Made by a program: the position numbers and the translations under genes. From Nitrospiraceae bacterium (GTDB lineage: Bacteria; Nitrospirota; Nitrospiria; Nitrospirales; Nitrospiraceae): 64,000 bases of DNA. A model generated the notes under the pieces. It was not told where the DNA came from. It saw nothing but the letters and a program-made list of their open reading frames with translations, and did not search any database. The stretch spans positions 128,001-192,000 of the forward strand of contig JBFWWG010000002.1 of the NCBI GenBank assembly GCA_050246315.1. Direction: 5' to 3'. Shown here one piece after another: positions 41,363 to 58,556 of the stretch. Numbering within the stretch: position 1 is the first letter of the stretch; the number at the start of each line of letters is the position of its first letter.

Positions 41363-43558
41363 ATGCAAGACTCACACATTCTTATGGAATGGAGCCGTTT
41401 TACCTCAGGGTCGGCGATCGCGAATGTCGTGCGCCCCATGATCCTGGAATCATGGGCCCGTTGCGTTGAGACCGGAATGCGCGCCGAACCCCAGTCGCTC
41501 AGCTTCAGACGGGTCAACGATGGCGAACTTGTGCAACGCCTCCAACAGAGCCGCGAGGTGCTAGAGAGAGCGAAGCCGTACCTCCGCCTGATCTCGACGG
41601 TCCTTGGATCGATCAAACACGTCGTCTATCTTGTCGATCATCAAGGCATTGTCCTCAAGAGCTGCGGGAATGCTCCCGATCTCCATCGTCGCGTTGGGCT
41701 CCTTCCGGGCTATGACTGGTCAGAGCGTGCGATGGGAACCAACGGAGCGGGAACGGCGTTGCTAACGGGCCGGCCTATCGCGGTGATCGGCCCCGAACAC
41801 TTCATGCGACATCTGCACGACTGCGCCTCCACCGCTGCGCCCGTCCATAATGAGGCCGGAGCCGTGATCGGAGCGCTTGCGATCGTCACCGCCGCAACGG
41901 ATGCGACGCCGGAACGGCTGAACATCGTCGTGCCATTCGCTTCTGCGATCGAACAAGAATCAGCCTCGATCGCCCGTAGCAAGGAGCTCATGCGGCTCGT
42001 CCAAGGCCCATACGCGCTCCTGGAACAGCACATGGCGCCCTTCTCTCCGGTTGGGGCGGCATGCATGAGCAACGAGCCGACCTGCCGAGAGTTGATCGAC
42101 TCGCTCCCCGCCGCGGTGTATCTCTGCGATGCGAACGGGGTCATTGTTCACTACAACCGTCTCGCCGCCCAGTTATGGGGTCGCGAGCCTCGGTGCGGCG
42201 ACCCTAGCGAGCGATTCTGCGGGGCCACCACCATATATCTTCCGGATGGAACCCTGCTCACTCACGAGCAGATGCCGACCGCGAGGGTCTTGCGCACCGG
42301 CCTCCCTCAGGACAATCGCGAATTGATCCTTGAGCGGGCAAACGGATCGCGCAGAACGGTCTTGGTGAATGCGGTTCCGCTCAAGAACGAGTCGGGAGAA
42401 GTCATCGGCGCGATGAACTGCATGTTTGACATTACAGATTGGAAACGCGCGGAAGACGCCGTAAGGAGTCGCGACGCCCGTCTTTCACACATCTTCTCCA
42501 GCGTCCCTGTCGTGCTCTACGAAGCCGAAGTGATCGAACCCTTCGGGCGGACTTGGGTCAGCGACAACATCGAAGGCCTCTCCGGTTTTCCCTCCGGACG
42601 CTTTATCGAAGATCCCGGGTTTTGGGCATCTCGATTACATCCAGACGACCGCGAACCAGTGCTCCGGACATTCGCCTCGCTCGGGGATCATGAGCGGCTT
42701 AGTTCCGAATACCGGTGGCAGCATGCCGACGGTCGATATCGCTGGTTCCTTGATCAGGTCGTCATTCAGCGCGACACCAACGGTCGGCCGACCGCCATTC
42801 TCGGGACGCGGCAGGACATGACCGAGCAAAGAGAAACCCGCCACCAGCTTCAGCAGTCGCTGGATCAATTGCGGATGCTCTCCCGCCGGCTCGAATTGGT
42901 GAGAGAAGAAGAACAGCGCAGGCTCGCCCGCGAAATTCATGATGAATTGGGAGTCTTGATGACCACGATGAAATTGGACCTCGCCCAGATGACCGGGTTG
43001 CTCATCGACGCGGGTCTTGGAACGGCGGCGCCTTCGTTACGACACAAGATCGTCTCGCTCGACAGTACATTGGATCAGACCATCACGGTGGTGCAACGGA
43101 TCGCCGCCGATCTTCGCCCAGGCGTGTTGGACGATCTTGGTCTGATCGCGGCGATCCAGTGGCAGGCTAAAACATTCCACTCTCGAACCGGTATTCATTG
43201 CGACGTGATCGCGGATACGGAGGATCCGCAGATCGATCCCGAACAGGCCACCGCATTGTTTCGTATCTGTCAAGAAGCACTTACGAACGTGGCACGACAC
43301 GCTCGGGCCACCTCCGTGGTCATCCGCTTCAGCGAAACAGGGGGACAAATCCTCCTCGAGATCGAGGACAATGGGCGAGGCATTCCGTCCGACAAACTGA
43401 CTGACCGCATGTCGCTGGGTCTGCTCGGCATGCGAGAACGGGCAAGCCTCGGTGGAGGAGAGGTCCATATTTCGGGGAAGCCTGGCAAGGGGACCATTAT
43501 CATCGTGCGCATGCCAACCGTTTCGGGGCACATGAATGCTGCGCACCAGACCTTGTAG
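41363..43558 (+). CDS. cytoplasmic sensor histidine kinase (GAF-PAS-PAS-HisKA_3-HATPase)
   Basis: GTNGAGTAL GAF; two PAS/PAC domains; LAREIHDELG H-box; QEALTNVARH, EDNGRG, LGLLGMRER. Confidence 0.92.
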   Translation: MQDSHILMEWSRFTSGSAIANVVRPMILESWARCVETGMRAEPQSLSFRRVNDGELVQRLQQSREVLERAKPYLRLISTVLGSIKHVVYLVDHQGIVLKSCGNAPDLHRRVGLLPGYDWSERAMGTNGAGTALLTGRPIAVIGPEHFMRHLHDCASTAAPVHNEAGAVIGALAIVTAATDATPERLNIVVPFASAIEQESASIARSKELMRLVQGPYALLEQHMAPFSPVGAACMSNEPTCRELIDSLPAAVYLCDANGVIVHYNRLAAQLWGREPRCGDPSERFCGATTIYLPDGTLLTHEQMPTARVLRTGLPQDNRELILERANGSRRTVLVNAVPLKNESGEVIGAMNCMFDITDWKRAEDAVRSRDARLSHIFSSVPVVLYEAEVIEPFGRTWVSDNIEGLSGFPSGRFIEDPGFWASRLHPDDREPVLRTFASLGDHERLSSEYRWQHADGRYRWFLDQVVIQRDTNGRPTAILGTRQDMTEQRETRHQLQQSLDQLRMLSRRLELVREEEQRRLAREIHDELGVLMTTMKLDLAQMTGLLIDAGLGTAAPSLRHKIVSLDSTLDQTITVVQRIAADLRPGVLDDLGLIAAIQWQAKTFHSRTGIHCDVIADTEDPQIDPEQATALFRICQEALTNVARHARATSVVIRFSETGGQILLEIEDNGRGIPSDKLTDRMSLGLLGMRERASLGGGEVHISGKPGKGTIIIVRMPTVSGHMNAAHQTL

Positions 43559-46701: not shown

Positions 46702-47142
46702 AATCTCCCCTCGCTCAGCTTCTTCGATGCCGAGCCCCCGGCCTCGGCGAGAAGCTGACGCTCCTGTCGAATGACCAGGACACCTCTCTCGCTCGTCCGT
46801 TCTTTCCGCCGCCCGCCGGTTGGGACTTGGTATCGCCCCGGCCCCGCTTGCCGGACATCGGCATCGCTCCGTTGCCTCAAGTCGAATTCAACCTCTTTCG
46901 AACGTCATGCTCATAACGACAACGCCGAGGTTTTCCTGCATCCGCGGGCAGCCAGCACTTCTCAACGTCGAATCACGCCATGAGGCAGGCAACCGGAATG
47001 GAGAGATCTGATGGGCCAATCGTCACTATGGCCGATATGGCCGAGAACCGCCGCTTCACCGTGCCGCGGCGACAAGTCCTCGGACGTCCCCCGCACGTGA
47101 GGAAAGCAGACAAACCGCAACTGCCCACGCGGCAGTCGTTCG

Positions 47143-48663
47143 TCAAGGCGCACCACCCTCGAATTGCAATCGTTCTTCTTCCTCTCTCTGTAGCGCGGTG
47201 ATCATCGAGTCCTGCATCAGTCGATGCATCTCTGCGCGCTCCACTTCCGTCAGACACGTCTTGGCGTCCTGGACGGCTGCCGTCAACAACGTCGAGGCCA
47301 GGGACGAAGGACTCTGTGAGAGGACCGATGCCATTGCGACAACCTCCGCGTAGATGCTCTGGTCAAGCTCCAAGACGAGCTGTTTTCCCCGAGGTCGGGT
47401 AGCCCCCGGCCCGGTTCCGGAAACGGACCGGATTGTCCGGATCAACGCCGCCACAGGACTGCCGTGCTCGAAGCCAAACATCACCATGTTCAGAAAGCGG
47501 TTTTCAAACTCCTTTTTCGCTTCATACACCCAGCGCCCCTGCTTGAGTTCGGTGATGTCTCCCACCGGGACGCGGAGTGCGGACAGGTATGCGGCATGGT
47601 CCTGTCCGCCTTCCATCACCCGCCGCCTGTGTTCTTCGTTCGCGCGTTGAAGAGGCCGGCCATGTAAGCCTGCAACGAGGTTATGGCAGGCGATGTGCAC
47701 CTCCTCCTGGATCGCGTCCACAGTTTGAGGAAGGCCGACCTCCACCGGGGTTGAGGAAGCGCGACTCGGGGTAATGCAGATCCCTGTCGCGAAGACCTTC
47801 TCGTATCGCTCGCTTCTTAGGTAGTGATCGACCTTGAGCAACCCATGGGCATCGGTGGGAAGAGCGCTGGCGGCAACGGCAGGGATGCCGCCGAACCGCG
47901 GCCAGTAGACACCGAAGACATAGCGAATGTCTTCTCCATTCGTGCTTCCATCATCCCTGTGTCTCGTGATACGGATGCGTTCGTCCGTCACGTCGACGGT
48001 TTCGGCGCTTCCGATCCACTGAATGTCATGAGCCGTCAAGGCACGAGTCAGTGGCTCTTGTAAAGCCGAGCCGCCGATACCCAAATGGCCTTGGTAGGGT
48101 TCCGGGGTGATGACGGTGATCGGCGCGCGGCGCCTGATCCCGCGCCTCCGAAGATCGGCATCGACGAGAAAGGCGTATTCGTAGACGGAGCCCAGAATCG
48201 CCGCGCCGGGCGCCGCGCCGATCACCATGGGTCCGGGGCGACGCACAAACTGTTCGTAGGCCTGCCTAGTCTCCAACGCCTGTTCGAGGGTAAGCACGCT
48301 ATGGAGCGCTGCGAGACCGGGAACCTCGTGCCATCGAGGAACGGCACCGCAGGCGATTATGATGGCATCGTAGGAGAGTTCCTGGGTCTTATCGACCATG
48401 ATGCGACTGCGATCGGCGTCGATGGTCGTTACGGCTCCATGTACGAAACCGATTCCGTGCGCCTCTAGGTACGGCTTCATAGGGATGACGATGTCGGCCT
48501 CGATGCGCCAACCGACCGCCAGCGCCGGATTGGAAGGGACGAACTGAAAATAGTCTCGGTCTGACACGACGGTGATGCGGGCGTCGGCGCCAAGCCGGCG
48601 CTTGAGCTCATAGGCGGCCGGCACGCCGGCGATACCGGCGCCCATCACGATAAGGTCGGGCAT
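47143..48663 (-). CDS. type-I SQR-like flavoprotein lacking the catalytic cysteines, with a C-terminal RHH-like extension (506 aa)
   Basis: GAGIAGVPAAYE, FQFVPSNP, EPYQGHLGIGG, GRWVYEAKKEFE; GGAG RBS 35 nt after the narI stop. Confidence 0.85.
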   Translation of the reverse strand: MPDLIVMGAGIAGVPAAYELKRRLGADARITVVSDRDYFQFVPSNPALAVGWRIEADIVIPMKPYLEAHGIGFVHGAVTTIDADRSRIMVDKTQELSYDAIIIACGAVPRWHEVPGLAALHSVLTLEQALETRQAYEQFVRRPGPMVIGAAPGAAILGSVYEYAFLVDADLRRRGIRRRAPITVITPEPYQGHLGIGGSALQEPLTRALTAHDIQWIGSAETVDVTDERIRITRHRDDGSTNGEDIRYVFGVYWPRFGGIPAVAASALPTDAHGLLKVDHYLRSERYEKVFATGICITPSRASSTPVEVGLPQTVDAIQEEVHIACHNLVAGLHGRPLQRANEEHRRRVMEGGQDHAAYLSALRVPVGDITELKQGRWVYEAKKEFENRFLNMVMFGFEHGSPVAALIRTIRSVSGTGPGATRPRGKQLVLELDQSIYAEVVAMASVLSQSPSSLASTLLTAAVQDAKTCLTEVERAEMHRLMQDSMITALQREEEERLQFEGGAP

Positions 48664-48698
48664 GATTACTCTCCGATCCTGCGTCGCGGTCACCCTCG

Positions 48699-49391
48699 CT
48701 ACCGCCGGTGCAACCCCGAACGCACCACCTGATACGGCCGCACGAGATAGCCCAGCAGCGCAAACCCACTCCAAATGTGAACCAGCCTGCTGAAGGGAAT
48801 GAGCGCGAACAGCGTCATCCCCAAAACCAGGTGAACCTGATAGACCAACGGCATGGTCGCCACCAAGGACGCCGCGCCGCCCCGAAACGTGACGATATGA
48901 CGGGCCCATTGGGACAAGGGAATCAGGTAGCCTCCCGAGAGTTCGCGGGCAGAAAAATATAGAGTGGTGAGGCCGAACAACAGGGTGAGAAGAATCCACA
49001 CCAGCACGACCAGATCCATCACATGCGTGGTTGCGCGGATCCTCGCATCCGTGACCCGGCGATGAATGAGCAGGAGCAGACCGGCCAAGCAAACAGATCC
49101 AAAGAGGCCGCCGCTGATCATGGCCACCAACTGATGCCCGCGCAGACTGATCCCCAGAATTCCAAACACTTCCGGCAGGAGGAGACCGACGAAATGTCCC
49201 AGAAAGAGGAACAGCACTCCGACATGAAAAAGATTGCTGCCGAGCCGGAGCGTATTTCGCTTGAGCAGCTCGCTCGAATGGCTCGTCCAGGTATACTGGC
49301 CCCGTTCAAAACGCAGCAAACTACCCAGGAGAAACACGGAGCCGGCTAGATAGGGATAAATCTGAAAGAAGAACTCGTGGACATCGCCCAT
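48699..49391 (-). CDS. narI: respiratory nitrate reductase gamma subunit
   Basis: Four heme b His: LFH..GH, VHLVLG, SRLVH. Confidence 0.95.
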   Translation of the reverse strand: MGDVHEFFFQIYPYLAGSVFLLGSLLRFERGQYTWTSHSSELLKRNTLRLGSNLFHVGVLFLFLGHFVGLLLPEVFGILGISLRGHQLVAMISGGLFGSVCLAGLLLLIHRRVTDARIRATTHVMDLVVLVWILLTLLFGLTTLYFSARELSGGYLIPLSQWARHIVTFRGGAASLVATMPLVYQVHLVLGMTLFALIPFSRLVHIWSGFALLGYLVRPYQVVRSGLHRR

Positions 49392-49400
49392 TGCGTCTCA

Positions 49401-50030
49401 TCATCCTCTCGAATCATGTCGAGCATCACCAGATCCGCCAGAGCCAGCGAAGTCACTCGCCGGAGTCCACCGCATTGAACTCCGATCACGGTTGCCTCGC
49501 ATTGTGGAGAGGATTGGGGTCAGCGCCGAACGGGAAGTCAGCGTCAGAAGAGCCTCGAAAGCGCCGACGTAGGGAGAGCCGGTATCTGCAAGCCGGTGGC
49601 GCAGGATCTGTACGACATCGTCGATGTCGGCGAGTCGCCCTTGCGCGTCTTTCGGCGGGATCAGGGACAGGAACTCGAGAAACAGCGGAAGAAAATCCGG
49701 CAATTCCCGGCTCGTCGGCTCCAGACCGAACCGTCGGTATTCTTCCACCAGTCGAGCCATCGCCTCACCTCGCTCGCGAGAATCCCCCATCCTGTGCTCG
49801 AAGACATGCAGTGAATGAGCGGCATTGCGATCAAACGTCTCGACATAGGCTTCCTGTAGATCGATCAACGGTCCGCGTTCGAGATAGGTGAACAGCCCCT
49901 CAAGCCGACGCCCGGCACGCCGGCCTCGTCCGGTCTCGGCGGAGACCATCGCCCGCAACTCACCGACCGACTGGAGCCAGTCCTGTTGGGGATAGGTCAA
50001 GAGCAGCGCGATGGCCTTATAGAGCCTCAC
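49401..50030 (-). CDS. narJ: nitrate reductase molybdenum cofactor chaperone
   Basis: LQEAYVETFD, DSRERG, ELPDFLPLFLEF; GTGA overlap with narH. Confidence 0.93.
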   Translation of the reverse strand: MRLYKAIALLLTYPQQDWLQSVGELRAMVSAETGRGRRAGRRLEGLFTYLERGPLIDLQEAYVETFDRNAAHSLHVFEHRMGDSRERGEAMARLVEEYRRFGLEPTSRELPDFLPLFLEFLSLIPPKDAQGRLADIDDVVQILRHRLADTGSPYVGAFEALLTLTSRSALTPILSTMRGNRDRSSMRWTPASDFAGSGGSGDARHDSRG

Positions 50031-51574
50031 GGCCTGCGGTTCCCTCTCCGGATGTCATTAACGCTAATGAGTTGCTGATTTGCCCGCCCCTTACCGGCGA
50101 ACAGACTTGCGCCCGTGACTCCTTCGGAAAATCGACTGTCGGCGGAGAAACCGCAGGAGCCCTGGTCATCGAAGGTGTGCGACAGGGCTTCCTGATGACT
50201 GGTAGGGATGACAAATCTGTCTTCATAATCGCCGATCGCGAGATACCGGTACATCTCCATAATCTGAGCTTCGGTCAGGCCTACCAGTTGGATCAAGGAC
50301 ATATCGGCTTGGCCCTCCAGGTCTTTCGTTCGCATGTACCGCCGCATGGCGAGCAATCGATCAACGGCGCGCACGATAGGCTCTTCGTTTCCTGCGGTGA
50401 GGAGACTGGCGAGGTATCGTATCGGTATCCGGAGCGAGGAGGTGTGCGGGAGCGGGTCGGTTTCCAGCGGTCCGACCTCGGCTGAATTGACCGCCGGCGA
50501 GAGCGGCGGGATGTACCACACCATGGGCAATGTCCGGTATTCGGGATGGAGCGGAAACGCCAGTTGCCACTCGACCGCCAGCTTATAGACTGGAGAGCGC
50601 GTGGCCGCCTCCAGCCAATTGTCGGGAAGCCCGTCCTGTTTCGCCTGGGCCTGTACAGCCGGATCATGGGGGTCCAAGAACAGGCCAAGCTGGGCCTCAT
50701 ACAGATCCTGTTCGTGTTCGACGCTCGCCGCTGTTTCGATCCGGTCCGCGTCGTAGAGGATGACGCCCAGGTATCGCAGACGACCGACGCAAGTCTCCGA
50801 GCAAATCGTGGGCTGGCCCGATTCGATGCGTGGGTAGCAGAAGGTGCACTTCTCGGCCTTCCCGGTGCTCCAGTTATAGTAGATTTTTTTATAGGGGCAC
50901 CCGCTGACGCACATCCGCCAGCCGCGACACTTGTCCTGGTCCACGAGCACAATGCCGTCTTCTTCGCGCTTGTAGATCGACCCGGATGGGCACGAGGCAA
51001 CGCAGGTGGGATTCAAACAATGCTCGCAGAGCCGCGGCAGGTAGAACAGAAAAGTGTTCTCGAACGAGGCCAGAAGGTCCGGATCGAGTCCATCGCAGTT
51101 CACGTCTTTGAGCCGTTCCGCCGTCTCGCCTCCGAGATCGTCCTCCCAATTCGGGCCATGCTCAATCTTGTCTTTGACCTCACCGGTAATGATGGACAGA
51201 GGTCGGGCGGTGGGCACGGTCGCTCCTTCCGGCGCGTACTGGAGCTGGTCGTAGTCGAACGTGAACGGCTCGTAATAATCGTCGAGCTGCGGCAGGTGGG
51301 GATTTGCAAATATGTTGGCCAGGATTCGCCAGCGCGCCCCCTGCTTCGGCTCGATCGTGCCGTCTTGTTTTCGCCGCCATCCGCCCCTCCAGTGTTCTTG
51401 GTTCTCCCATTCGTGAGGATAGCCGACGCCAGGCTTGGTTTCGACATTGTTGAACCAGGCGTATTCCACGCCTTCACGAGAGGTCCACACGTTCTTGCAG
51501 GTGACGGAGCAGGTGTGGCAGCCGATACACTTATCGAGGTTCATGACCATGGCCACCTGCGCGCGGACTTTCAT
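50027..51574 (-). CDS. narH: respiratory nitrate reductase beta subunit
   Basis: MKVRAQVAMVMNLDKCIGCHTCSVTC, CEHCLNPTC, CRGWRMC, HPEYRTLPMVWY. Confidence 0.97.
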   Translation of the reverse strand: MKVRAQVAMVMNLDKCIGCHTCSVTCKNVWTSREGVEYAWFNNVETKPGVGYPHEWENQEHWRGGWRRKQDGTIEPKQGARWRILANIFANPHLPQLDDYYEPFTFDYDQLQYAPEGATVPTARPLSIITGEVKDKIEHGPNWEDDLGGETAERLKDVNCDGLDPDLLASFENTFLFYLPRLCEHCLNPTCVASCPSGSIYKREEDGIVLVDQDKCRGWRMCVSGCPYKKIYYNWSTGKAEKCTFCYPRIESGQPTICSETCVGRLRYLGVILYDADRIETAASVEHEQDLYEAQLGLFLDPHDPAVQAQAKQDGLPDNWLEAATRSPVYKLAVEWQLAFPLHPEYRTLPMVWYIPPLSPAVNSAEVGPLETDPLPHTSSLRIPIRYLASLLTAGNEEPIVRAVDRLLAMRRYMRTKDLEGQADMSLIQLVGLTEAQIMEMYRYLAIGDYEDRFVIPTSHQEALSHTFDDQGSCGFSADSRFSEGVTGASLFAGKGRANQQLISVNDIRRGNRRP

Positions 51575-51612
51575 AAGACCTCCGTTCGTGACCGTCTTGG
51601 ACCACCTCAACG

Positions 51613-54600
51613 TTAGCCCGTCGTCGGACCGGCGCTCCATGTGACATGATCGAGCTTCCGCACGACGACCATCTCGTCTCGGTTGGTCCCGACCGTTCCA
51701 TAGTAGTTGTAGCCATAGGCCAGGTGCGCATAGCCACCGATCATGTGAGTCGGCTTCATCACAATCCTCGTCACGCTGTTGTGAATGCCCCCTCGCCGTC
51801 CCGTGGTCGGGGCCAGCGGCATGTTGATGATCTTGTCCTGCGCGTGGTACATCATCGCCACTCCGCGCGGAATCCGTTGGCTGAGGATCGCCCGCGCCAC
51901 CAGCGCGCCGTTGACGTTGACGACCTCGATCCAATCATTGTCCCGGATACCAACTTCCTTGGCTTCCGTCTCCGACAACCAGACGACGGGACCGCCTCGG
52001 GACAAGGTAAGCATCGGACTCGTCTCGCTGTAGGTTGTATGGATTCCCCACTTCTGGTGAGGTGTGATCCAACTGACGATAAGGACGTTCTTTTCATCCT
52101 CTCCCCGCCGACGGCTCAGCGCGTCAACGGATCGGGTATCCACGGGCGGCTTGTACGCACAGACCTGCTCGCCGAAGAGGCGCATCCACGGATGATCCTG
52201 GTAAAGCTGTTGGCGCCCGGTCAGGGTCCGCCAGGGGATGAGTTCCTGGATGTTGGTATAGTTCCCTGTGTAGGAGACCTTTTCCGACTCGATGCCGCTC
52301 CAAGTTGGCGAGGGGATGACCTTCCTGGGCTGGGCCACCAGGTCATCGAATGAGAACGATTCCTCGGCCCGCCCCTCGGCCAGATGTCTGTGCGATCGAC
52401 CGGTCCGCTGCGAGAGAGCGTCCCAGGCCTTGACCGCGACGCGACCGTTCGTTTCCGGAGCCAACGTCAGGATGGCTTGCGCCGCCTGTCGTGCCGTGTT
52501 CAGTTTCGGATAGGACTCTCGCTCGTCCAGGCTCACCTCCCCATTGACCTGGCGCAGCGCTTCGACCTCTTCCCTACTGTCCCATACGATTCCCTTCGCC
52601 CCGGTTCCCAGATCGCGCGTTAACGGCCCGAGTCTGATGAATCGATCGTAGGTCTCGCCATAGGGTCGCCTGACCACCGTCATGGTGGGCATCGTCTTGC
52701 CGGGGATGGCTTCACAATCTCCTCGCTTCCAGTCATCCGCCCTCATCGGCTGACCGAGCTCGCTCGGTGTATCGTGCAACAGAGGCGTCAGCACCAGGTC
52801 CTTTTGCGTGCCAAGGACCGGTCCGGCAAGTTCGGAAAACTTCCTGGCGATTTCTTTGAAAATCTCCCAATCAGACTTGCTCTCCCAGAGGGGATTCACG
52901 GCTTCACACAGCGGGTGGATGAAGGGGTGCATGTCCGACGTGTTCAGATCGTCCTTTTCATACCAGGTCGCGCTGGGCAGCACGACATCGGAATACAGGC
53001 AGGTCGAGGACATACGAAAATCGAGCGTCACAAGCAGATCGAGCTTTCCTGTGGCAGCCTCATCTTGCCAGACGACTTCGCATGGAAGCGGCGCCTCCTG
53101 TTCCTTGAGATCGGGTGCCAGGACGCCGTGGGGAGCACCGAGCAGATGCTTCAAAAAGTATTCATGACCCTTGGCGCTCGATCCGACCAAGTTGGAACGC
53201 CAGAGGAAGAGGTTTCGAACAAAATTTTGAGGATGATCGGGATCTTCCGAACCGATCGCGAGCTTGCCGCTTCTGAGCTGCTCGACGGCATACGCGATGG
53301 GGTGCGTTCCTGTCGCTTCCGCTTCGCTCACGACATCGAGCGGATTCCTGTTGAGCTGAGGCGCGGAAGGAAGCCAGCCTCTGCGTTCGGCCCGTATGTT
53401 CCAATCAATAAGATGTGTGGCATCCGCATCCGGATCGTCCTTGGCCGTCGGCGAGAGAATATCCGCCGGTCGCAGCGTTTCATACCGCCACTGGTCGGTA
53501 TGGGCATAAAAGAAGGAGGTACCGTTCATGTGTCGAGGCGGCCGGAGCCAATCCAATGCGAACGCCACGGTGGTCCAACCGGCAAGCGGCCGCACTTTTT
53601 CCTGTCCGACATAATGAGCCCACCCGCCGCCCGATCGCCCGACGCACCCGCACATGACCAGGATGTTGATGATCGCGCGGTAGACCATGTCGGTGTGGTA
53701 CCACTGATTGATCCCGTTCCCGACGATGACCAGTGAACGGCCTCGGGTCTTGTCCGCGTTCTCCGCGAACTCACGGGCGAGACGGATGATCTGATGGCGG
53801 GGGACGCCCGAATGTTTTTCGGCCCAGGCCGGCGTATAGGGCATGTCCCGATCGTAGTTCTGTGAAGTCTGATCGTCTCCAAGCCCTCGATCGAGACCGT
53901 ATCCGGCCAGCAGGAGATCATAGGCAGTGACCACGAGGCTCTCGCCATGAACGGTGCTGAGCCGCCGGGCCGGAACCAACCGGTGCATGATGGATGGGTG
54001 ATCGTCCTCAAAGTAGGGAAAGGCGACCGACACGATCTCGTCGGCCTGCGGCAGTACGCTCAGGGCCGGCACGATCTTGCGTCCGGTCGTCGCGTCGATC
54101 AGATCGAGATTCCACCGTCCTTTCTCGCGCCACCGAAAGCCGATGCTGCCGTGAGGCGCGCACAGATGTCCGGTGGCCTCATCCACGATCACCGTCTTCC
54201 AGTCCGGATTGTTGGTTTCGCCCAGTTGGCCGTCGAAGTCGGATGCTCGAACAAACCGGCCCGGCTCATATCCGTCGCCGGCGGGGCGCAGGAAGACCAA
54301 CATGGGCATGTCGCTGTACTGGCGGCAGTAGTCCAGAAAGTAGGGACTGCGGGCGGTCAGATGAAATTCCTTCAGGATGACATGGCCGAGCGCCAGGGCC
54401 AACGCGGCATCGGTGCCTCGGCGGGGAGCCAACCAAAGATCCGCAAACTTCACGTATTCCGCGAAGTCCGGAGCCACGGCGACGGTCTTGGCGCCTTTGT
54501 ATCGGGCAGCCGTATAGAAATGTGCATCGGGAGTCCGCGTCTGCGGAATGTTCGATCCCCAGACGACAATGTAGGAGGAGTTGTACCAGTCGGCAGCCTC

Positions 54601-55314
54601 GCACACGTCGGTCTGCTCGCCCCAGACCTGGGGTGATGACGGCGGTAAGTCAGCGTACCAGTCGTAAAACGACGGGATCACCCCGCCGATCAAGGAGAGA
54701 TACCGGCTACCTGCCGCAAAACTCACCATCGACATCGCGGGGATGGGAGAAAACCCCGCGATGCGGTCCGGACCGTACCGCCGGATCGTATAGACATTGG
54801 CCGCCGCGATCAGTTCCGTGACCTCGTCCCACGACGCGCGCACGAAGCCGCCCTGTCCTCGGATCGACGTGTAGTGCCCGCGTTTTTGCGCGTCCTCAAC
54901 GATCGATGTCCAGGCTTCGACCGGTGGCAGTGCTTTCCGAGCATCACGCCACAAGGCCATCAAGCGTCCTCGCACCAACGGATACTTGACGCGTTGCGCG
55001 CTGTAGACGTACCAGGAATAGCTCGCACCCCTGGGGCATCCGCGAGGTTCATGATTCGGCAGATCGGCGCGGGTCCGAGGGTAGTCCGTCTCCTGGGTCT
55101 CCCACGTGATCAAGCCGTTCTTCACGTAAATTTTCCAGCTACATGAACCGGTACAGTTGACCCCGTGCGTGGACCGCACCACCTTGTCGTGATTCCAGCG
55201 ATCACGATAGGCGTTCTCCCATGTGCGATCCTCTCGCCTGACGACCCCGTGTTTCCCTGCAAACGTCTCAAGGTTTTCACGGAAGAATAAGAGCCGGTCG
55301 AGGAAGTGACTCAC
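51613..55314 (-). CDS. narG: respiratory nitrate reductase alpha subunit (cytoplasmic NarG)
   Basis: MSHFLDRL N-terminus with no Tat signal; HGVNCTGSC..PRGC, DWYADLP, HYVGQEK, TPHQKWGIH. Confidence 0.96.
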   Translation of the reverse strand: MSHFLDRLLFFRENLETFAGKHGVVRREDRTWENAYRDRWNHDKVVRSTHGVNCTGSCSWKIYVKNGLITWETQETDYPRTRADLPNHEPRGCPRGASYSWYVYSAQRVKYPLVRGRLMALWRDARKALPPVEAWTSIVEDAQKRGHYTSIRGQGGFVRASWDEVTELIAAANVYTIRRYGPDRIAGFSPIPAMSMVSFAAGSRYLSLIGGVIPSFYDWYADLPPSSPQVWGEQTDVCEAADWYNSSYIVVWGSNIPQTRTPDAHFYTAARYKGAKTVAVAPDFAEYVKFADLWLAPRRGTDAALALALGHVILKEFHLTARSPYFLDYCRQYSDMPMLVFLRPAGDGYEPGRFVRASDFDGQLGETNNPDWKTVIVDEATGHLCAPHGSIGFRWREKGRWNLDLIDATTGRKIVPALSVLPQADEIVSVAFPYFEDDHPSIMHRLVPARRLSTVHGESLVVTAYDLLLAGYGLDRGLGDDQTSQNYDRDMPYTPAWAEKHSGVPRHQIIRLAREFAENADKTRGRSLVIVGNGINQWYHTDMVYRAIINILVMCGCVGRSGGGWAHYVGQEKVRPLAGWTTVAFALDWLRPPRHMNGTSFFYAHTDQWRYETLRPADILSPTAKDDPDADATHLIDWNIRAERRGWLPSAPQLNRNPLDVVSEAEATGTHPIAYAVEQLRSGKLAIGSEDPDHPQNFVRNLFLWRSNLVGSSAKGHEYFLKHLLGAPHGVLAPDLKEQEAPLPCEVVWQDEAATGKLDLLVTLDFRMSSTCLYSDVVLPSATWYEKDDLNTSDMHPFIHPLCEAVNPLWESKSDWEIFKEIARKFSELAGPVLGTQKDLVLTPLLHDTPSELGQPMRADDWKRGDCEAIPGKTMPTMTVVRRPYGETYDRFIRLGPLTRDLGTGAKGIVWDSREEVEALRQVNGEVSLDERESYPKLNTARQAAQAILTLAPETNGRVAVKAWDALSQRTGRSHRHLAEGRAEESFSFDDLVAQPRKVIPSPTWSGIESEKVSYTGNYTNIQELIPWRTLTGRQQLYQDHPWMRLFGEQVCAYKPPVDTRSVDALSRRRGEDEKNVLIVSWITPHQKWGIHTTYSETSPMLTLSRGGPVVWLSETEAKEVGIRDNDWIEVVNVNGALVARAILSQRIPRGVAMMYHAQDKIINMPLAPTTGRRGGIHNSVTRIVMKPTHMIGGYAHLAYGYNYYGTVGTNRDEMVVVRKLDHVTWSAGPTTG

Positions 55315-55384
55315 GCTTGACTCCTACGACACATGACTAAAGGACGGTCGACCTGGCTTACGCATGAGCAGACATTCGACGGTG

Positions 55385-55400
55385 TGCAATGACAGTACCA
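55385..55400 (-). promoter_or_regulatory. putative sigma-54 promoter of narG
   Basis: TGGTAC-TGTCA-TTGCA (GG-N10-GC), about 70 nt upstream of the start. Confidence 0.6.
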
Positions 55401-55705
55401 AGATACCGAAATCGAGAAGCGAGCGTAATTGTCACTATCAGTCGCCGCCGTTCTCTGACGAATCGATCGTTTCCGCACGGTTTGCACAGTGTGGTATGGC
55501 CGTAAAGAAGACGACTGATTACACCCCTCTTGGTCATACGCGTGCGGAGTTTCACGATGGCGAACGTGGATTCAATCGGATTGGCGCTCTGGACGGGCTT
55601 CCAGTGCGCTGCGGGAAGTCGAAGTGGAGTAGGAGGCGCGGCACGTCCGCGAGGAGCGTCTTGACAGCCTTCGGATACTTCGTCTTGTAGTCCTGGCGAA
55701 TCGTG

Positions 55706-56689
55706 TCAAAACACGAGGGTCCAGCCCTCGCGTTGAGCCTCTTCGCGCGTGTAGGCCACGCCGTGCACTTTCAAGCCCTGCGCGTCCAGCAAGGTGATGA
55801 TGCCGCCGTCGTTTCCCAATTGCACGGTTGGCGAGAGGGAAATCTGGACGGTTGCGCCGGGGTCAAGGGTGCCTCCCAGGACATGCTTGCGCTTGAGCTT
55901 GTCGGCTATGGCCCACCCGTTCAGGGTGATCCGCTGAGGGGTCGTATTCAACAGCGTGACCGTTTCGTTCTCCGGTGATGGACCGGCCGGATTGACCAGC
56001 GCGGCAATGATACGGACCGTATGATCCGGCTGTTCTCCTTCGATGCGATGACCCGTTCGGTCATCGCTGTGCCAGAGTTGTGACTGGAACTTGAGAAAGA
56101 TCGCCACCCACTGGCTGCGAGAGGGGAACTGAATCAGTACCGCGCCGTCTTGCCACACGCCATCATCGTCTCGGAAGGCATCGGAGTTCGCTTGGTTCAT
56201 GTGAATATCGTGGATGCCATTGCCCGGCTTGAAGCCGAAATACGCGTCCTTCTTCTCTGTCTCCGGCCCCCATCTCTCACCGAATACGTAGATGACCGCT
56301 TCTTCCTCCGCCATCGCTTTCAGCACGTACCGATCAAACATCTCGTTCAAGTCGTTGTCGGGTCCTGGGAGATTAAATGGAAGCGGTTTCATCCTCGTCC
56401 GATCGAAGAGGTTGCCGCGGATGAAGTCGAGGGGCAGGCCTCCAGGCCGACTCTGAAGCGAAGTGAACCCGAGCGGAAGACTCGATAATCCCGTGGTGAT
56501 GGGGTGATGGAAGGCATCATCAACGAGGTATTCCAGTTCCGACGGACTTTCCTTGGACTTGACATTCACTGCAATACGATAGTCCGAAGTCTCATCAATG
56601 AGGTGAATCTGATAGTGAGGACTGCTCCCCTGACCGAGTATTCGGCGAATGGGGCGTCCCTTCAACACGCCATAGCGCTTCAGCGGCAT
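55706..56689 (-). CDS. YukJ/DUF2278 domain protein with a C-terminal lamin-tail-like domain
   Basis: YGVLKG, PHY, RIAVNV, LDFIR, GIHDIHMNQ, WQDG; then ALVNPAG..ETVTLLN..LGNDGG. Confidence 0.85.
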   Translation of the reverse strand: MPLKRYGVLKGRPIRRILGQGSSPHYQIHLIDETSDYRIAVNVKSKESPSELEYLVDDAFHHPITTGLSSLPLGFTSLQSRPGGLPLDFIRGNLFDRTRMKPLPFNLPGPDNDLNEMFDRYVLKAMAEEEAVIYVFGERWGPETEKKDAYFGFKPGNGIHDIHMNQANSDAFRDDDGVWQDGAVLIQFPSRSQWVAIFLKFQSQLWHSDDRTGHRIEGEQPDHTVRIIAALVNPAGPSPENETVTLLNTTPQRITLNGWAIADKLKRKHVLGGTLDPGATVQISLSPTVQLGNDGGIITLLDAQGLKVHGVAYTREEAQREGWTLVF

Positions 56690-57092: not shown

Positions 57093-58556
57093 TCATGCGA
57101 TACGGATGACGGGTTCGATGTGGCTGCTCGAACGCTTGACTACTTGTCTCAGGAGCTCCAGGTCGTTCTGGATGGATCGGAACAGGCCAATCGCAAGCAC
57201 AAAACCCCCAAGCCCGCCTAGGCCGAGCATGCCCAGCAAGGTTGAATGTCTCGTCGAGCCGGCTAGCGGGCTGAGCGTGAGCCCCAGCGTGATCGCCAGC
57301 ATCGGCAGCACGCCGGCGAGCAGCAGATAACGCCATATCCAGCGGCGCAGCCGTTCGAGCGCGGCTCCATCCTGCGAGGTGGTCGAGCCGGGTCGGACCA
57401 GAGGCAAGTAGAGCACGCGTGTGCACAGCCATGTCACGCCGAGGAACGGGTAAGTCGCTGCAATCATGCCGCAGATGGCCAGCGAGGCGATGAAATAGAC
57501 GTAGTTGCGCGGTTCCAATACACCGATCATCAACGGATACACAGGACCCAGTATGACCCAAAGGGTGCTCCCGATGATTGCGGCGAAGTGGCCGAGCTTC
57601 AGGCACCGCTCGCGCGTGAATCCCAGCGTAGCCACGGGCACCACCGCATCTCTTCGCAACTGCCGCAGCACACGAGCCACCGGCCAGGCCAGCCACACGA
57701 ACAGCCCCAATCCCACCGGAAAGCTGACACCGTTGCAGATCAGCGCGGCGCTCTGAAAGAGGCGTTCCACCTGCGCCATCCCCCGTTCCTGCATCGGGAG
57801 GACGATCACCTGCCAGTTATAAATGAAGTTAAACCAGGCTGCCAGGATATTGGGCAGGGAGGCAACGAACAACATGGCCAAAATCGGAAAACGGGAGGTC
57901 GCATGGCGCCAGCCACGTGGTGCCGGGCCGAGTCCTTCGGCCGCTTGAGTCAATTCCCGCAGCGGCTGCATGCGCTCGATCACGTCCCGATAATTGGGCC
58001 GGATCGACTCGATCGCCTCGAAGCGGTGAAGCGCGTCCTCCCATTGCCCCATAGACTGTACAGTCAGCGCCTCCGCATACCACCGTGACAGCTTCGGTTC
58101 GTCCGTCACGTGTTCAATGGCCTGGAAGAGTCTATCGACATCTTCGTCCCAACGTACATGAGAAAGCGGTACTCCCTGCAATCGTGCGAGCGGTCTCAGG
58201 TCAACTGGGAGGTCATCCTCGGAGGGCATTGTCGCGCCCTCTATCAAAACAGGTATGGTGGGGATGCTGTGTCCAAGAGCGTGGGCGATCTCGAGACGCA
58301 CGAAATCGTTCGGAACGTCAAGTCGGCGCTGACTGAAACGGTCAGTCACCGTGAGCCATTTTGGTCCTATGATGACAAGCAGCACCTCGCAATTGGTGAG
58401 GGCGTTTTCGATAATGCTCGTGAAGTCACTGCCTGCTTCAATGTCCTCCACGTCCAGGAAAACTTGCCGGTCACCGAACTTGTGTTTCATCTCGCTCCGC
58501 AGAGCTCGAACAAAGCCGGGGTTATCGCGCCTGTAGCTGATAAAGATGTGTCCCAT
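57093..58556 (-). CDS. TIR-domain protein with a TPR-like linker and multi-pass membrane domain
   Basis: IFISYRR..VFLD..DFVRLEIAHAL; YAEA..GQWEDA..F..PNYRDV; about 6 hydrophobic segments. Confidence 0.85.
   Translation of the reverse strand: MGHIFISYRRDNPGFVRALRSEMKHKFGDRQVFLDVEDIEAGSDFTSIIENALTNCEVLLVIIGPKWLTVTDRFSQRRLDVPNDFVRLEIAHALGHSIPTIPVLIEGATMPSEDDLPVDLRPLARLQGVPLSHVRWDEDVDRLFQAIEHVTDEPKLSRWYAEALTVQSMGQWEDALHRFEAIESIRPNYRDVIERMQPLRELTQAAEGLGPAPRGWRHATSRFPILAMLFVASLPNILAAWFNFIYNWQVIVLPMQERGMAQVERLFQSAALICNGVSFPVGLGLFVWLAWPVARVLRQLRRDAVVPVATLGFTRERCLKLGHFAAIIGSTLWVILGPVYPLMIGVLEPRNYVYFIASLAICGMIAATYPFLGVTWLCTRVLYLPLVRPGSTTSQDGAALERLRRWIWRYLLLAGVLPMLAITLGLTLSPLAGSTRHSTLLGMLGLGGLGGFVLAIGLFRSIQNDLELLRQVVKRSSSHIEPVIRIA

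Follow-up and report, generated by a model that had tools for sequence, protein, structure and literature searches.

A cysteine-less paralogue of sulfide:quinone oxidoreductase at the end of a narGHJI cluster, with a predicted ribbon-helix-helix tail

The last gene of a nitrate reductase gene cluster in a Nitrospiraceae bacterium encodes a membrane-peripheral, FAD-binding paralogue of sulfide:quinone oxidoreductase (SQR) that is without the sulfide-oxidizing cysteine triad. Its last ~85 residues form a tail (strand, helix, turn, helix, followed by a long helix of acidic character and a conserved F-x-G-G terminus) for which structural models support a ribbon-helix-helix (RHH) fold, appended through a flexible linker. 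The explanation we favour, tentatively and at a little short of an even chance, is that the tail is a dimerizing RHH module presenting a conserved C-terminal docking peptide, on a cysteine-less SQR paralogue belonging to narGHJI clusters. Below, we describe the gene and its family, the lost chemistry of the body, the fold of the tail and its linkage to nar, before weighing this explanation against its rivals. Coordinates refer to the window, which is the whole 64,000-nucleotide stretch of DNA that was analysed.

The gene and its family

The gene has a likely ATG start at 48663 with GGAGAG just 5' of it, and a stop codon at 47143-47145. Its parts are as follows.

47143..48663, minus strand: whole gene, a 506-residue SQR-fold flavoprotein with a predicted C-terminal RHH tail (open reading frame, start codon, Pfam and phmmer)
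47422..48663, minus strand: SQR-like body, residues 1-414, with the FAD GxGxxG motif kept (AF2 full-length model, pLDDT 80)
47386..47421, minus strand: low-complexity G/P/T linker SGTGPGATRPRG, residues 415-426 (pLDDT below 50 at 415-425)
47362..47385, minus strand: predicted ribbon beta-strand, residues 427-434 (KQLVLELD), from dimer-model contacts, hhalign register and column counts
47323..47361, minus strand: predicted RHH helix 1, residues 435-447 (AF2 models)
47257..47310, minus strand: predicted RHH helix 2, residues 452-469 (AF2 models, alignment and dimer contacts)
47161..47247, minus strand: predicted long acidic helix 3, residues 473-501, with the invariant L491 (AF2 and alignment)
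47146..47175, minus strand: C-terminal motif, residues 497-506 (ERLQFEGGAP), whose F and second G do not vary in a 29-row tail alignment

The first-pass annotation had described a G/P/T linker and an RHH-like pattern beyond the normal SQR end, and its placement was accurate: the residues KQLVLELDQ...TAAV lie at 47385-47272 and the linker at 47421-47386. That this is an extension past the usual end is also borne out, residues 4-398 being those that align with a structurally known SQR (3sx6_A) and the tail-less relatives (n = 31) being 422-436 residues long.

Absence of the extension from homologues had been named as a ground for giving up the RHH proposal; the tail is in fact conserved in 43 aligned homologues of 504-530 residues, which share 39-81% identity over the whole protein. 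The linker region (residue 397 to 424) varies from 26 to 39 residues across this tailed family. L459, A463 and L491 are invariant in all 43, and L39, A43, L71, F81 and G84 in the 29-row tail alignment (tail numbers are full-length numbers minus 420). A chance extension of the reading frame was ruled out by conservation of the tail at 26-35% identity outside Nitrospira. The tailed proteins, from Nitrospira, Thiobacillus and others, form one clade with SH-like support of 1.0 on a branch of length 0.74, and a search of its own genome with the tailed protein as query gave no other SQR-like gene.

Searches with the tail led back to the same family. Among 28 short proteins matching the tail profile there was no free-standing relative; all appear to be fragments of tailed SQR-like proteins, judging by their names, their short contigs and three sequences inspected. 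Longer proteins gave 219 matches, of which the 120 listed all have the same SQR-like architecture or are fragments of it. When the 95-residue tail was compared by phmmer with 1.84 billion representatives, two matches were returned; one was a Nitrospira orthologue, and the other (P0122) was rejected as a false positive, a repeat protein whose G/P linker had been aligned. We also considered whether the C-terminal G-G might be a sulfur-carrier end like that of ThiS or MoaD, and ruled this out because one or two residues always follow the glycines.

The body and its lost chemistry

Pfam places Pyr_redox_2 on residues 3-308 and otherwise finds only related FAD and NAD motifs. By phmmer, residues 4-398 align with residues 7-409 of the 437-residue type I SQR of A. 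ferrooxidans (3sx6_A, E 1.1e-73; see also 3kpk), and the match to the A. aeolicus enzyme (3hyv) has E 6.2e-61. The likeness to type I SQR extends to the FAD motif, whose G8, G10 and G13 are invariant in the tailed family (n = 43), to the equivalents of Glu166 and His198, each kept in 43/43, and to the invariant Cys296, which is common to both. The C-terminal helices of the body are present at 377-396 and 403-414, and the helix that matches the C-terminal amphipathic helix of SQR is kept, with R377, W378, V379, A382, K383 and E387 invariant.

The differences from type I SQR concern the catalytic residues, along with the extra ~85-residue RHH-like tail, the linkage to narGHJI and the separate clade. 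At query positions 124, 156 and 348, the equivalents of Cys128, Cys160 and Cys356, none of the 43 tailed proteins has a cysteine, position 348 being an invariant tryptophan, whereas all 31 tail-less SQRs do; the equivalent of His132, also histidine in 31/31 tail-less SQRs, is replaced throughout the tailed family (glutamine in 30, glutamate in seven, aspartate in five and arginine in one). Roles for these three cysteines and His132 in the active site of the A. ferrooxidans enzyme are given in PMC6335251. Because the cysteine triad and His132 are lost, and in the light of this published knowledge of the active site, the body does not act as a sulfide:quinone reductase by the canonical mechanism. 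Among the SQR models of NCBIfam just one matches, NF049943 (type III, seleno subtype); its 81.7 bits fall short of the 525 set as cut-off.

In databases, the tailed family is nevertheless named 'sulfide:quinone oxidoreductase'. It lacks every catalytic cysteine, and a metabolic reconstruction in which its gene stands for a capacity to oxidize sulfide is probably wrong.

Predicted fold and pairing of the tail

Modelled alone by AF2, the tail has a mean pLDDT of 86 and helices at tail residues 15-27, 32-49 and 53-82. No strand is formed in the monomer models of the tail or of the full-length protein, as is expected if the strand pairs only within a dimer. A comparison with 48,161 PDB representatives by VIA-align gave best rows that were mostly RHH proteins, matched over model residues 4-51 at Z 7.2-5.3; these values are below 8 throughout, and the tool warns that such Z are common for small domains. 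The top rows were CopA-SO (6iya, Z 7.2) and Rv0298 (Z 6.9), and the RHH domain of PutA (2rbf) scored Z 6.7 with an rmsd of 1.5 over 44 residues. CopG, the PutA RHH and RHH antitoxins were likewise the best rows of Foldseek, none at E ≤ 0.001 (all E ≥ 0.25); 2rbf superposed with an rmsd of 1.4 over 42 columns and a target-normalized TM of 0.79, and CopG 1b01 with an rmsd of 1.8. With either tool, the best rows are mostly RHH proteins matched over the whole of their ~45-residue domain, at rmsd 0.8-2.5.

Evidence at the level of sequence includes an hhalign comparison of the tail with five RHH_1 domains of the same genome, which line up in register as expected, at P 5e-4 and a probability of 32%. 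In the predicted ribbon strand L429, L431 and L433 face the core and Q428, V430 and E432 face outwards, and the three core columns are alternating conserved hydrophobics (L in 34/43, I/L/V in 43/43 and L/V/I in 42/43). An S-Q-S-P turn precedes helix 2, which holds the invariant L459 and A463.

Family profiles do not recognize the tail as RHH. A Pfam search of P0001 and P0002 gave no RHH family match at E ≤ 10; on the tail, matches from Pfam and NCBIfam did not rise above noise, with PMEI at E 0.05 and a hydrogenase protease at E 0.065, and on 29 tail sequences Pfam gave a single match of RHH type (TacA1, E 0.0077, in 1/29). A six-frame search of the genome with PF01402 found six sites, none of them within the tailed gene. 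The best PDB profile matches had E of just 0.28-0.42; they were a CRISPR-associated DinG chain and the 91-residue 'DNA-binding protein' chains 4oay and 5khd, which we take to be the BldD C-terminal domain. A search of the ESM Atlas gave unnamed clusters and nothing else. The original assignment of the tail to the RHH domains is supported as regards fold, to which AF2, VIA-align, Foldseek and the dimer model all point, but it does not extend to a match with any Pfam RHH profile.

The first-pass annotation had looked to a dimer prediction for an intertwined RHH with an antiparallel ribbon, and ESMFold2 returned such a structure for the tail homodimer, with a score of 0.45 against 0.01 for the best control, although the model may here be reproducing solved RHH dimers that it remembers. 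Of proteins solved as pairs, 20 of 30 reach the pass mark, as does one of 23 proteins solved as single chains. Agreement between runs extended to at least 96% of contacts, with a partner pLDDT of at least 73. In the modelled dimer, the antiparallel ribbon is made by contacts 10:10, 11:9 and 12:8 (tail numbering); helix 2 and helix 2' form the core (40:40 and 43:39), helix 1 also packs against helix 2', and tail residues 55-70 of helix 3 lie within the interface. On this model, the tail probably joins two copies of the protein.

Linkage to narGHJI

The genes upstream of the tailed gene, from nearest to furthest, are as follows.

48699..49391, minus strand: narI, nitrate reductase gamma subunit (Pfam Nitrate_red_gam, E 1.7e-70)
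49401-50030, minus strand: narJ (Pfam)
50027-51934, minus strand: open reading frame of narH (Pfam), with a true start that is probably further downstream
51613-55314, minus strand: narG (Pfam)

The tailed gene is the last of this cluster, narI ending 35 nt upstream of it, and no toxin gene is found among its neighbours. narI lies directly upstream of the tailed gene at 13 of 15 loci, and none of 65 loci of tail-less SQRs has a nar gene within 8 kb. Among 121 Nitrospiraceae genomes, the same five carry narI and the tailed gene, and the two are adjacent in each. In Thiobacillus-type denitrifiers and the few nar-bearing Nitrospiraceae, the tailed gene behaves as a constant fifth member of narGHJI, and its product might be an accessory or regulatory part of respiratory nitrate reductase that has gone unrecognized.

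The Nrc NADH dehydrogenase of Thermus thermophilus provides a precedent for a two-dinucleotide-fold flavoprotein beside a nar operon: its NrcN, which is of a different subfamily and has no RHH tail, is a nar-linked, NDH-2-like flavoprotein dedicated to nitrate respiration. In the T. denitrificans genome, sqr is presumably annotated next to nar. A literature search found no paper describing the tailed family, although two 2006 papers on T. denitrificans might mention a member; a genetic system for that species is mentioned in PMC3753534.

The ribbon face and DNA binding

To our knowledge, nearly all RHH domains in the literature bind DNA, and the prior thus favours DNA binding. In PutA the ribbon carries T, G and K, and the ribbons of RHH antitoxins bind DNA. 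Unlike that of PutA, the ribbon of the tailed family is acidic or proline-rich. Its three outward positions are variable (P15/R9/Q5, E22/D7/V4 and P12/H9/R9/E5 among the 43 members): the central one is E or D in 29/43, the flanking ones are proline in 15/43 and 12/43, and at least one acidic residue is present on the face in 35/43. By comparison, none of 33 control RHH_1 domains is acidic at any of the three positions, these controls being non-independent (about half are NikR-like) and their register being taken from one hhalign alignment. The net charge is ~0 to -1 for the RHH core and ~-4 for helix 3 and the C-terminus in most members, giving ~-5 for the whole tail. There are basic residues also: K or R occurs on the ribbon face in 20/43, a basic residue stands ahead of the strand (position 427) in 28/43, and the Nitrospira linker is basic (TRPRGK).

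A search for candidate operators upstream of narG (55300-55720) gave three weak inverted repeat pairs and no direct repeats. Alignment of this upstream region, at first for three loci (the window, L001 and L002) and then for six Nitrospiraceae loci, revealed no shared repeat or block, but with one pair too alike and the others too diverged this comparison counts neither for nor against an operator. The chemistry of the ribbon, as read from sequence, argues against a DNA reader of the classical kind; the tailed protein may or may not bind DNA.

What the tail might do

In the favoured explanation, two tails would intertwine, with the ribbon centred on V430 and helix 2 packed on helix 2', to give a flavoprotein dimer; this may then present helix 3, which is acidic, together with the invariant F-x-G-G peptide for docking onto a partner, for which a Nar component or the flavoprotein body is a candidate. 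The ribbon, given its chemistry, would not read DNA. The F-x-G-G end is as conserved as the RHH core. RHH antitoxins provide a parallel, since they dimerize via the RHH and grip their partner with the C-terminal part. Antitoxins such as TacA, AtaR, KacA, MazE-mt9 and ParD resemble the tail in having an RHH followed by a long helix and a tail, and are among its best fold matches, some spanning 64-82 columns but at rmsd 8-12. They differ in being small free proteins; the tail here is fused to a 414-residue flavoprotein, with no adjacent toxin gene.

The role originally proposed for the tail was that of a PutA-style redox switch, with an RHH that merely dimerizes the protein as the fallback, and it is the fallback that fits better. 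As a switch, the FAD would sense the quinone pool or another reductant, and the RHH dimer would bind or release an operator, at nar or elsewhere, according to redox state. We regard this as unlikely, although it has a good deal in its favour. As in PutA of E. coli (RHH structures 2rbf and 2gpe), an RHH and a membrane-associating flavoenzyme share one chain, and few structures match the tail as well as the PutA RHH does (rmsd 1.4-1.5 over 42-44 residues, at 11-12% sequence identity). The loss of catalytic cysteines with retention of the FAD motif suits a sensor, and the keeping of the amphipathic helix as well would be typical of an enzyme turned sensor. The gene goes strictly with an operon for which redox regulation is known in other bacteria, and basic residues precede the strand. 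The likeness holds at the level of architecture only, however: in PutA the RHH is N-terminal and joined to PRODH and P5CDH domains, whereas here it comes after an SQR-fold body, and neither of those domains is detected by Pfam. The acidic or proline-rich ribbon face, the negative charge of core and tail and the want of a Pfam RHH match all count against a switch, and no conserved block was found upstream of narG in the six Nitrospiraceae loci. Topology may count against it too, SQR being reported to face the periplasm in R. capsulatus but the cytoplasm in Cupriavidus (PMC6335251); a periplasmic position of the tailed protein would rule out DNA binding.

A bolder form of the same idea, which we hold to be somewhat less probable again, is that of a second, independently evolved PutA-like device, in which a catalytically disarmed SQR, its FAD and quinone site retained, senses the quinone pool (or sulfide or persulfide), moves between membrane and DNA by means of its RHH and tunes the genes of nitrate respiration. 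If true, it would place a one-component redox regulator inside the narGHJI clusters of sulfur-oxidizing denitrifiers and a few Nitrospira. An RHH placed C-terminal to an SQR-fold flavoprotein and bearing an acidic ribbon would be either an uncommon case of the fold serving something other than DNA binding or else a new switch of the PutA kind.

It is rather improbable that the tail is purely structural, with an RHH that stabilizes a dimer or oligomer, or aids folding or membrane delivery, and has no ligand of its own. The passing dimer model and the fact that the conserved RHH positions are hydrophobic core residues would accord with this, but helix 3 and F-x-G-G are conserved as strongly as the core, so that a simple clamp is an insufficient explanation, and the 31 tail-less SQR relatives manage without one. 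That the tail is not RHH at all but a generic three-helix appendage, its likeness reflecting a common small-domain arrangement, would explain the silent Pfam profiles, the poor PDB profile matches, the strandless monomers and the fold-search values (Z < 8, Foldseek E > 0.2), yet is very improbable given how homogeneous the fold-search lists are (mostly RHH proteins over the whole domain), the register with RHH_1, the alternating hydrophobics and the antiparallel ribbon contacts of the dimer model.

Transcription across the cluster

Downstream of the tailed gene there is one further feature.

47118..47138, minus strand: terminator-like hairpin beginning 5 nt past the stop codon, suggestive by its position only

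The region holds two hairpins against a mean of 1.4 in shuffles, which is no excess, and contigs assembled from RNA libraries extend across the one at 47118-47138. Such contigs fall short of proving a single transcript, DNA carry-over is possible, and stretches that they leave uncovered carry no information. They also cover part of the tail-coding region (X15, X16 and X17), and the junction of narI and the tailed gene is bridged by contigs in three runs, each of a different study (X15 at 48167-48818, X16 at 48237-48884 and X18 at 48392-48795).

Gene and extension

P0001, the sulfide:quinone oxidoreductase (SQR)-fold flavoprotein considered here, carries a C-terminal tail. What is new is the setting of its probable ribbon-helix-helix (RHH) domain, fused here for the first time to a disarmed SQR whose gene acts like a fifth member of the nar cluster. 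The positions in the window are:

49092..47143, minus strand: longest open reading frame of the tailed gene
48663, minus strand: ATG preceded by GGAGAG, 35 nt beyond the stop of the upstream gene; a plausible start, giving 506 residues
47421-47386, minus strand: linker SGTGPGATRPRG
47385-47272, minus strand: tail segment KQLVLELDQ...TAAV

The coordinates in the first-pass annotation proved exact when the reading frame, linker and KQLVLELDQ segment were read again. All Pfam matches in P0001 are to Pyr_redox_2 (residues 3-308) and short FAD/NAD motifs, and the one NCBIfam SQR model that is matched scores 81.7 bits, far below its cut-off of 525. Against PDB sequences (phmmer), residues 4-398 align with residues 7-409 of the 437-residue A. 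ferrooxidans SQR 3sx6_A (E 1.1e-73); the A. aeolicus SQR is matched at E 6.2e-61. By this comparison P0001 extends approximately 80-85 residues beyond the canonical end, as had been claimed from the sequence.

At E <= 0.001, 465 proteins match P0001 (7999 candidates scored). The best 120 of these have lengths of 504-530 residues, with 97-100% of the query covered in nearly every case (P0080 reaches 78% and P0097 93%); within the same 120, identity is 72-80% for Nitrospira and mostly 39-44% for the rest. The named sources outside Nitrospira, among the matches listed, are Thiobacillus, Hydrogenophilales, Burkholderiales and Gammaproteobacteria. Forty-three relatives were aligned (A1), and the tails of 29 of them make up a second alignment (A2), from which P0097, with its end out of frame, and redundant rows were omitted. 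The consensus of A2 is L-E-I-R-L-P-x-D-x-x-x-E-L-R-A-L-A-x-x-L-G-x-x-P-x-x-L-A-x-x-L-L-x-A-A-x-x-D-A-K-x-x-L followed, after a gap, by R-R-E-L-L-x-x-x-L-P-E-x-Q-P-G-V-x-F-x-G-G, with L39, A43, L71, F81 and G84 (tail numbering, full number minus 420) invariant in all 29 rows. The extension might have been absent from homologues; it is conserved throughout the aligned relatives. No homologue among the matches listed has a Pfam annotation on the tail, and no published description of it was found in a literature search that did not reach some possibly relevant 2006 papers.

Fold and dimerization of the tail

The tail very probably adopts the RHH fold. The RHH-like pattern noted in the first-pass annotation is upheld by structure predictions and fold searches, but not by sequence profiles: Pfam RHH families match neither P0001 nor the tail sequences, a six-frame scan of the whole genome with PF01402 gives six sites elsewhere and none in the tailed gene, and a PDB profile search with the tail yields nothing better than E 0.28-0.42. 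AF2 on the tail alignment (pLDDT 86) predicts helices at 15-27, 32-49 and 53-82 with an extended segment ahead of helix 1, and the full-length model places these helices at 435-447, 452-469 and 473-501. No PDB chain reaches E <= 0.001 with the tail model in Foldseek, where MazE-mt9, KacA, AtaR, CopG and the RHH of PutA rank best, the last (2rbf) superposing with an rmsd of 1.4 over 42 columns and a target-normalised TM of 0.79. Among 48,161 representative chains, VIA-align is led by CopA-SO (Z 7.2), Rv0298 (6.9) and the PutA RHH (6.7), and since Z < 8 is common according to the tool's own warning, the weight rests on the homogeneity of the list. Further top rows are TraM, TacA, CdbA, ArtA, SvtR, AmrZ, HP0222, NikR, omega, Arc and ParD, and each top protein is aligned across its whole domain of about 45 residues. 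Most of these are RHH proteins; for rows 3 and 26 the title itself gives this. Finally, when A2 is compared by hhalign with five RHH_1 domains of the same genome (A4), strand falls on strand and helix on helix (P 5e-4, probability 32%).

An intertwined RHH dimer with an antiparallel ribbon had been anticipated, and the ESMFold2 homodimer has both features. It scores 0.45 against 0.01 for the best control, a pass that may be partly memory because RHH dimers abound among solved structures; of 30 proteins solved as pairs, 20 attain the mark, as does one of 23 solved as single chains. At least 96% of contacts recur between runs, and the partner has a pLDDT of 73 or more. Contacts 10:10, 11:9 and 12:8 form the ribbon, with the dyad at V430; helices 1 and 2 both pack against helix 2'. 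Fold and dimer are thus supported by the models.

A disarmed SQR

The body was compared with 31 tail-less SQR relatives, chosen for full flank from 65 tail-less loci. Catalytic roles for the SQR cysteines and for His132, Glu166 and His198 are described in a review (PMC6335251). All three cysteines are present in 31/31 tail-less SQRs and in 0/43 of the tailed family, which has I/L/M/V at 124, I/V/L at 156 and, at 348 (the Cys356 equivalent; window ~47620-47622), Trp in 37 and Arg in six, all Nitrospira sequences. The His132 equivalent is histidine in every tail-less SQR vs Q30/E7/D5/R1 in the tailed family. Equivalents of Glu166 and His198 are retained, as is Cys296 (window ~47776-47778; 43/43 tailed, 30/31 tail-less). 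Invariant in A1 are G8, G10, G13 and the helix R377-E387, counterpart of the SQR C-terminal amphipathic helix.

In a tree built from the catalytic part alone, up to the column of residue 398, all 43 tailed proteins group in one clade (SH-like support 1.0, branch 0.74); gain of the tail and loss of the cysteines therefore coincide in a single lineage. A search of the genome of the window (G000) with P0001 finds no canonical SQR, the sole other match being a weak Pyr_redox (33% identity over 126 residues), so that the tailed gene, annotated as SQR elsewhere in the family, is the only SQR-like gene there, and it lacks the catalytic cysteines.

Linkage to narGHJI

48699-55314, minus strand: narG, narH, narJ and narI (Pfam), the four genes upstream of the tailed gene; cytoplasmic type

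Eighty loci were fetched with A1, 15 with a tailed protein and 65 with a tail-less SQR, and searched by tblastn with NarI, NarJ and NarG of the window. NarI ends just ahead of the tailed gene in 13/15 tailed loci; none of the three queries has a match in any of the 65 tail-less ones. The two tailed loci without a NarI match are L008, where the gene begins at the contig end, and L014, where the 369 nt upstream hold a PpiC-type rotamase fragment. Among 121 Nitrospiraceae genomes the tailed gene is full-length in G000, G070, G061 and G115 and contig-truncated in G116; exactly these five have NarI, adjacent in each, and 41 further genomes have only an SQR of ~420 residues. NarG of the window is ~65% identical to Thiobacillus-type NarG. 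Together these results suggest that narGHJI and the tailed gene were acquired as a unit by this Nitrospiraceae genome.

The narH reading frame (50027-51934, minus strand) is listed at 635 residues, with an overlap of ~320 nt with the end of narG; the true start probably lies further downstream than 51934, because Thiobacillus-type NarH frames are mostly 513-515 residues. P0150, a 128-residue protein on a 28,906-base contig, joins the first ~85 NarG residues to the last ~45 of the tail (...RERVRFEGGAP), and looks like the scar of a deletion that took the narG-to-tailed-gene region as one block.

Possible function of the tail

Most likely, the tail acts as a dimer with a docking end: the intertwined RHH would, on the models, dimerize the membrane-bound flavoprotein, and the dimer would present the conserved acidic helix 3 and F-x-G-G end to a partner, much as RHH antitoxins hold theirs with their C-terminal part. 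The docking role is suggested by conservation and ribbon chemistry; given the strict nar linkage, the first candidates would be one of the Nar components or the body of the flavoprotein itself.

The principal alternative is that the tail binds DNA, which we consider unlikely. Nearly all known RHH domains do so, and K/R stands just before the strand in 28/43 members. By the dimer model and hhalign, L429, L431 and L433 point into the core, and 428, 430 and 432 point outward; the commonest outward residues are P15/R9/Q5/S4, E22/D7/V4 and P12/H9/R9/E5, respectively. This face has at least one acidic residue in 35/43 members and K/R in 20/43. Twenty-nine Nitrospirota genomes supplied 33 distinct RHH_1 domains as controls, which are not independent since about half are NikR-like; at the equivalent HMM positions 1, 3 and 5 these hold no acidic residue (0, 0, 0) and few prolines (2, 0, 0). 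Net charge is about -1 for the RHH core (range -4 to +2) and about -4 for helix 3 plus the C-terminal end. Comparison of the regions upstream of narG in the window and the L001/L002 loci, and of six Nitrospiraceae upstream regions, showed no element in common. SQR topology varies between organisms according to PMC6335251, so that a cytoplasmic location is not assured. A full redox switch like that of PutA, the model first proposed, is less probable still.

Neighbouring genes and transcription

L003:9653-9973 and L012:5069-5389, also in L005 and L015: DsrC-like protein, following the tailed gene
L007, L009, L010, L012 and L013: 106-108-residue reading frames listed by size, following the tailed gene
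55706-56689, minus strand: DUF2278 and lamin-tail-domain protein, directly upstream of narG
57093-58556, minus strand: 487-residue TIR-domain protein, beyond the DUF2278 gene
41363-43558, plus strand: PAS-PAS-HisKA_3-HATPase sensor kinase, 3.6 kb downstream of the tailed gene

In nine Thiobacillus-type loci a reading frame of 106-108 residues directly follows the tailed gene, and all four that were scanned are DsrC-like. True DsrC has a penultimate cysteine; the two translated copies keep one cysteine (..QACK..), end in AWSTG and lack the penultimate one. The ~400-residue frame after the DsrC-like gene is NnrS in all three loci scanned there, and three Thiobacillus-type loci have a gamma-glutamyltranspeptidase gene. 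In the window the next gene encodes a DUF488 protein (Pfam), and 5 nt past the tailed-gene stop begins a hairpin with a T-rich run behind it.

Contigs of three RNA libraries from three studies span the narI/tailed-gene junction without mismatch, and three RNA runs have contigs over part of the stretch that encodes the tail. This is weak evidence that the tailed gene is expressed, and such contigs are no proof of one transcript with narI. The sensor kinase is a candidate for a conventional regulator of nar; L001 has a similar-sized reading frame at the matching place.
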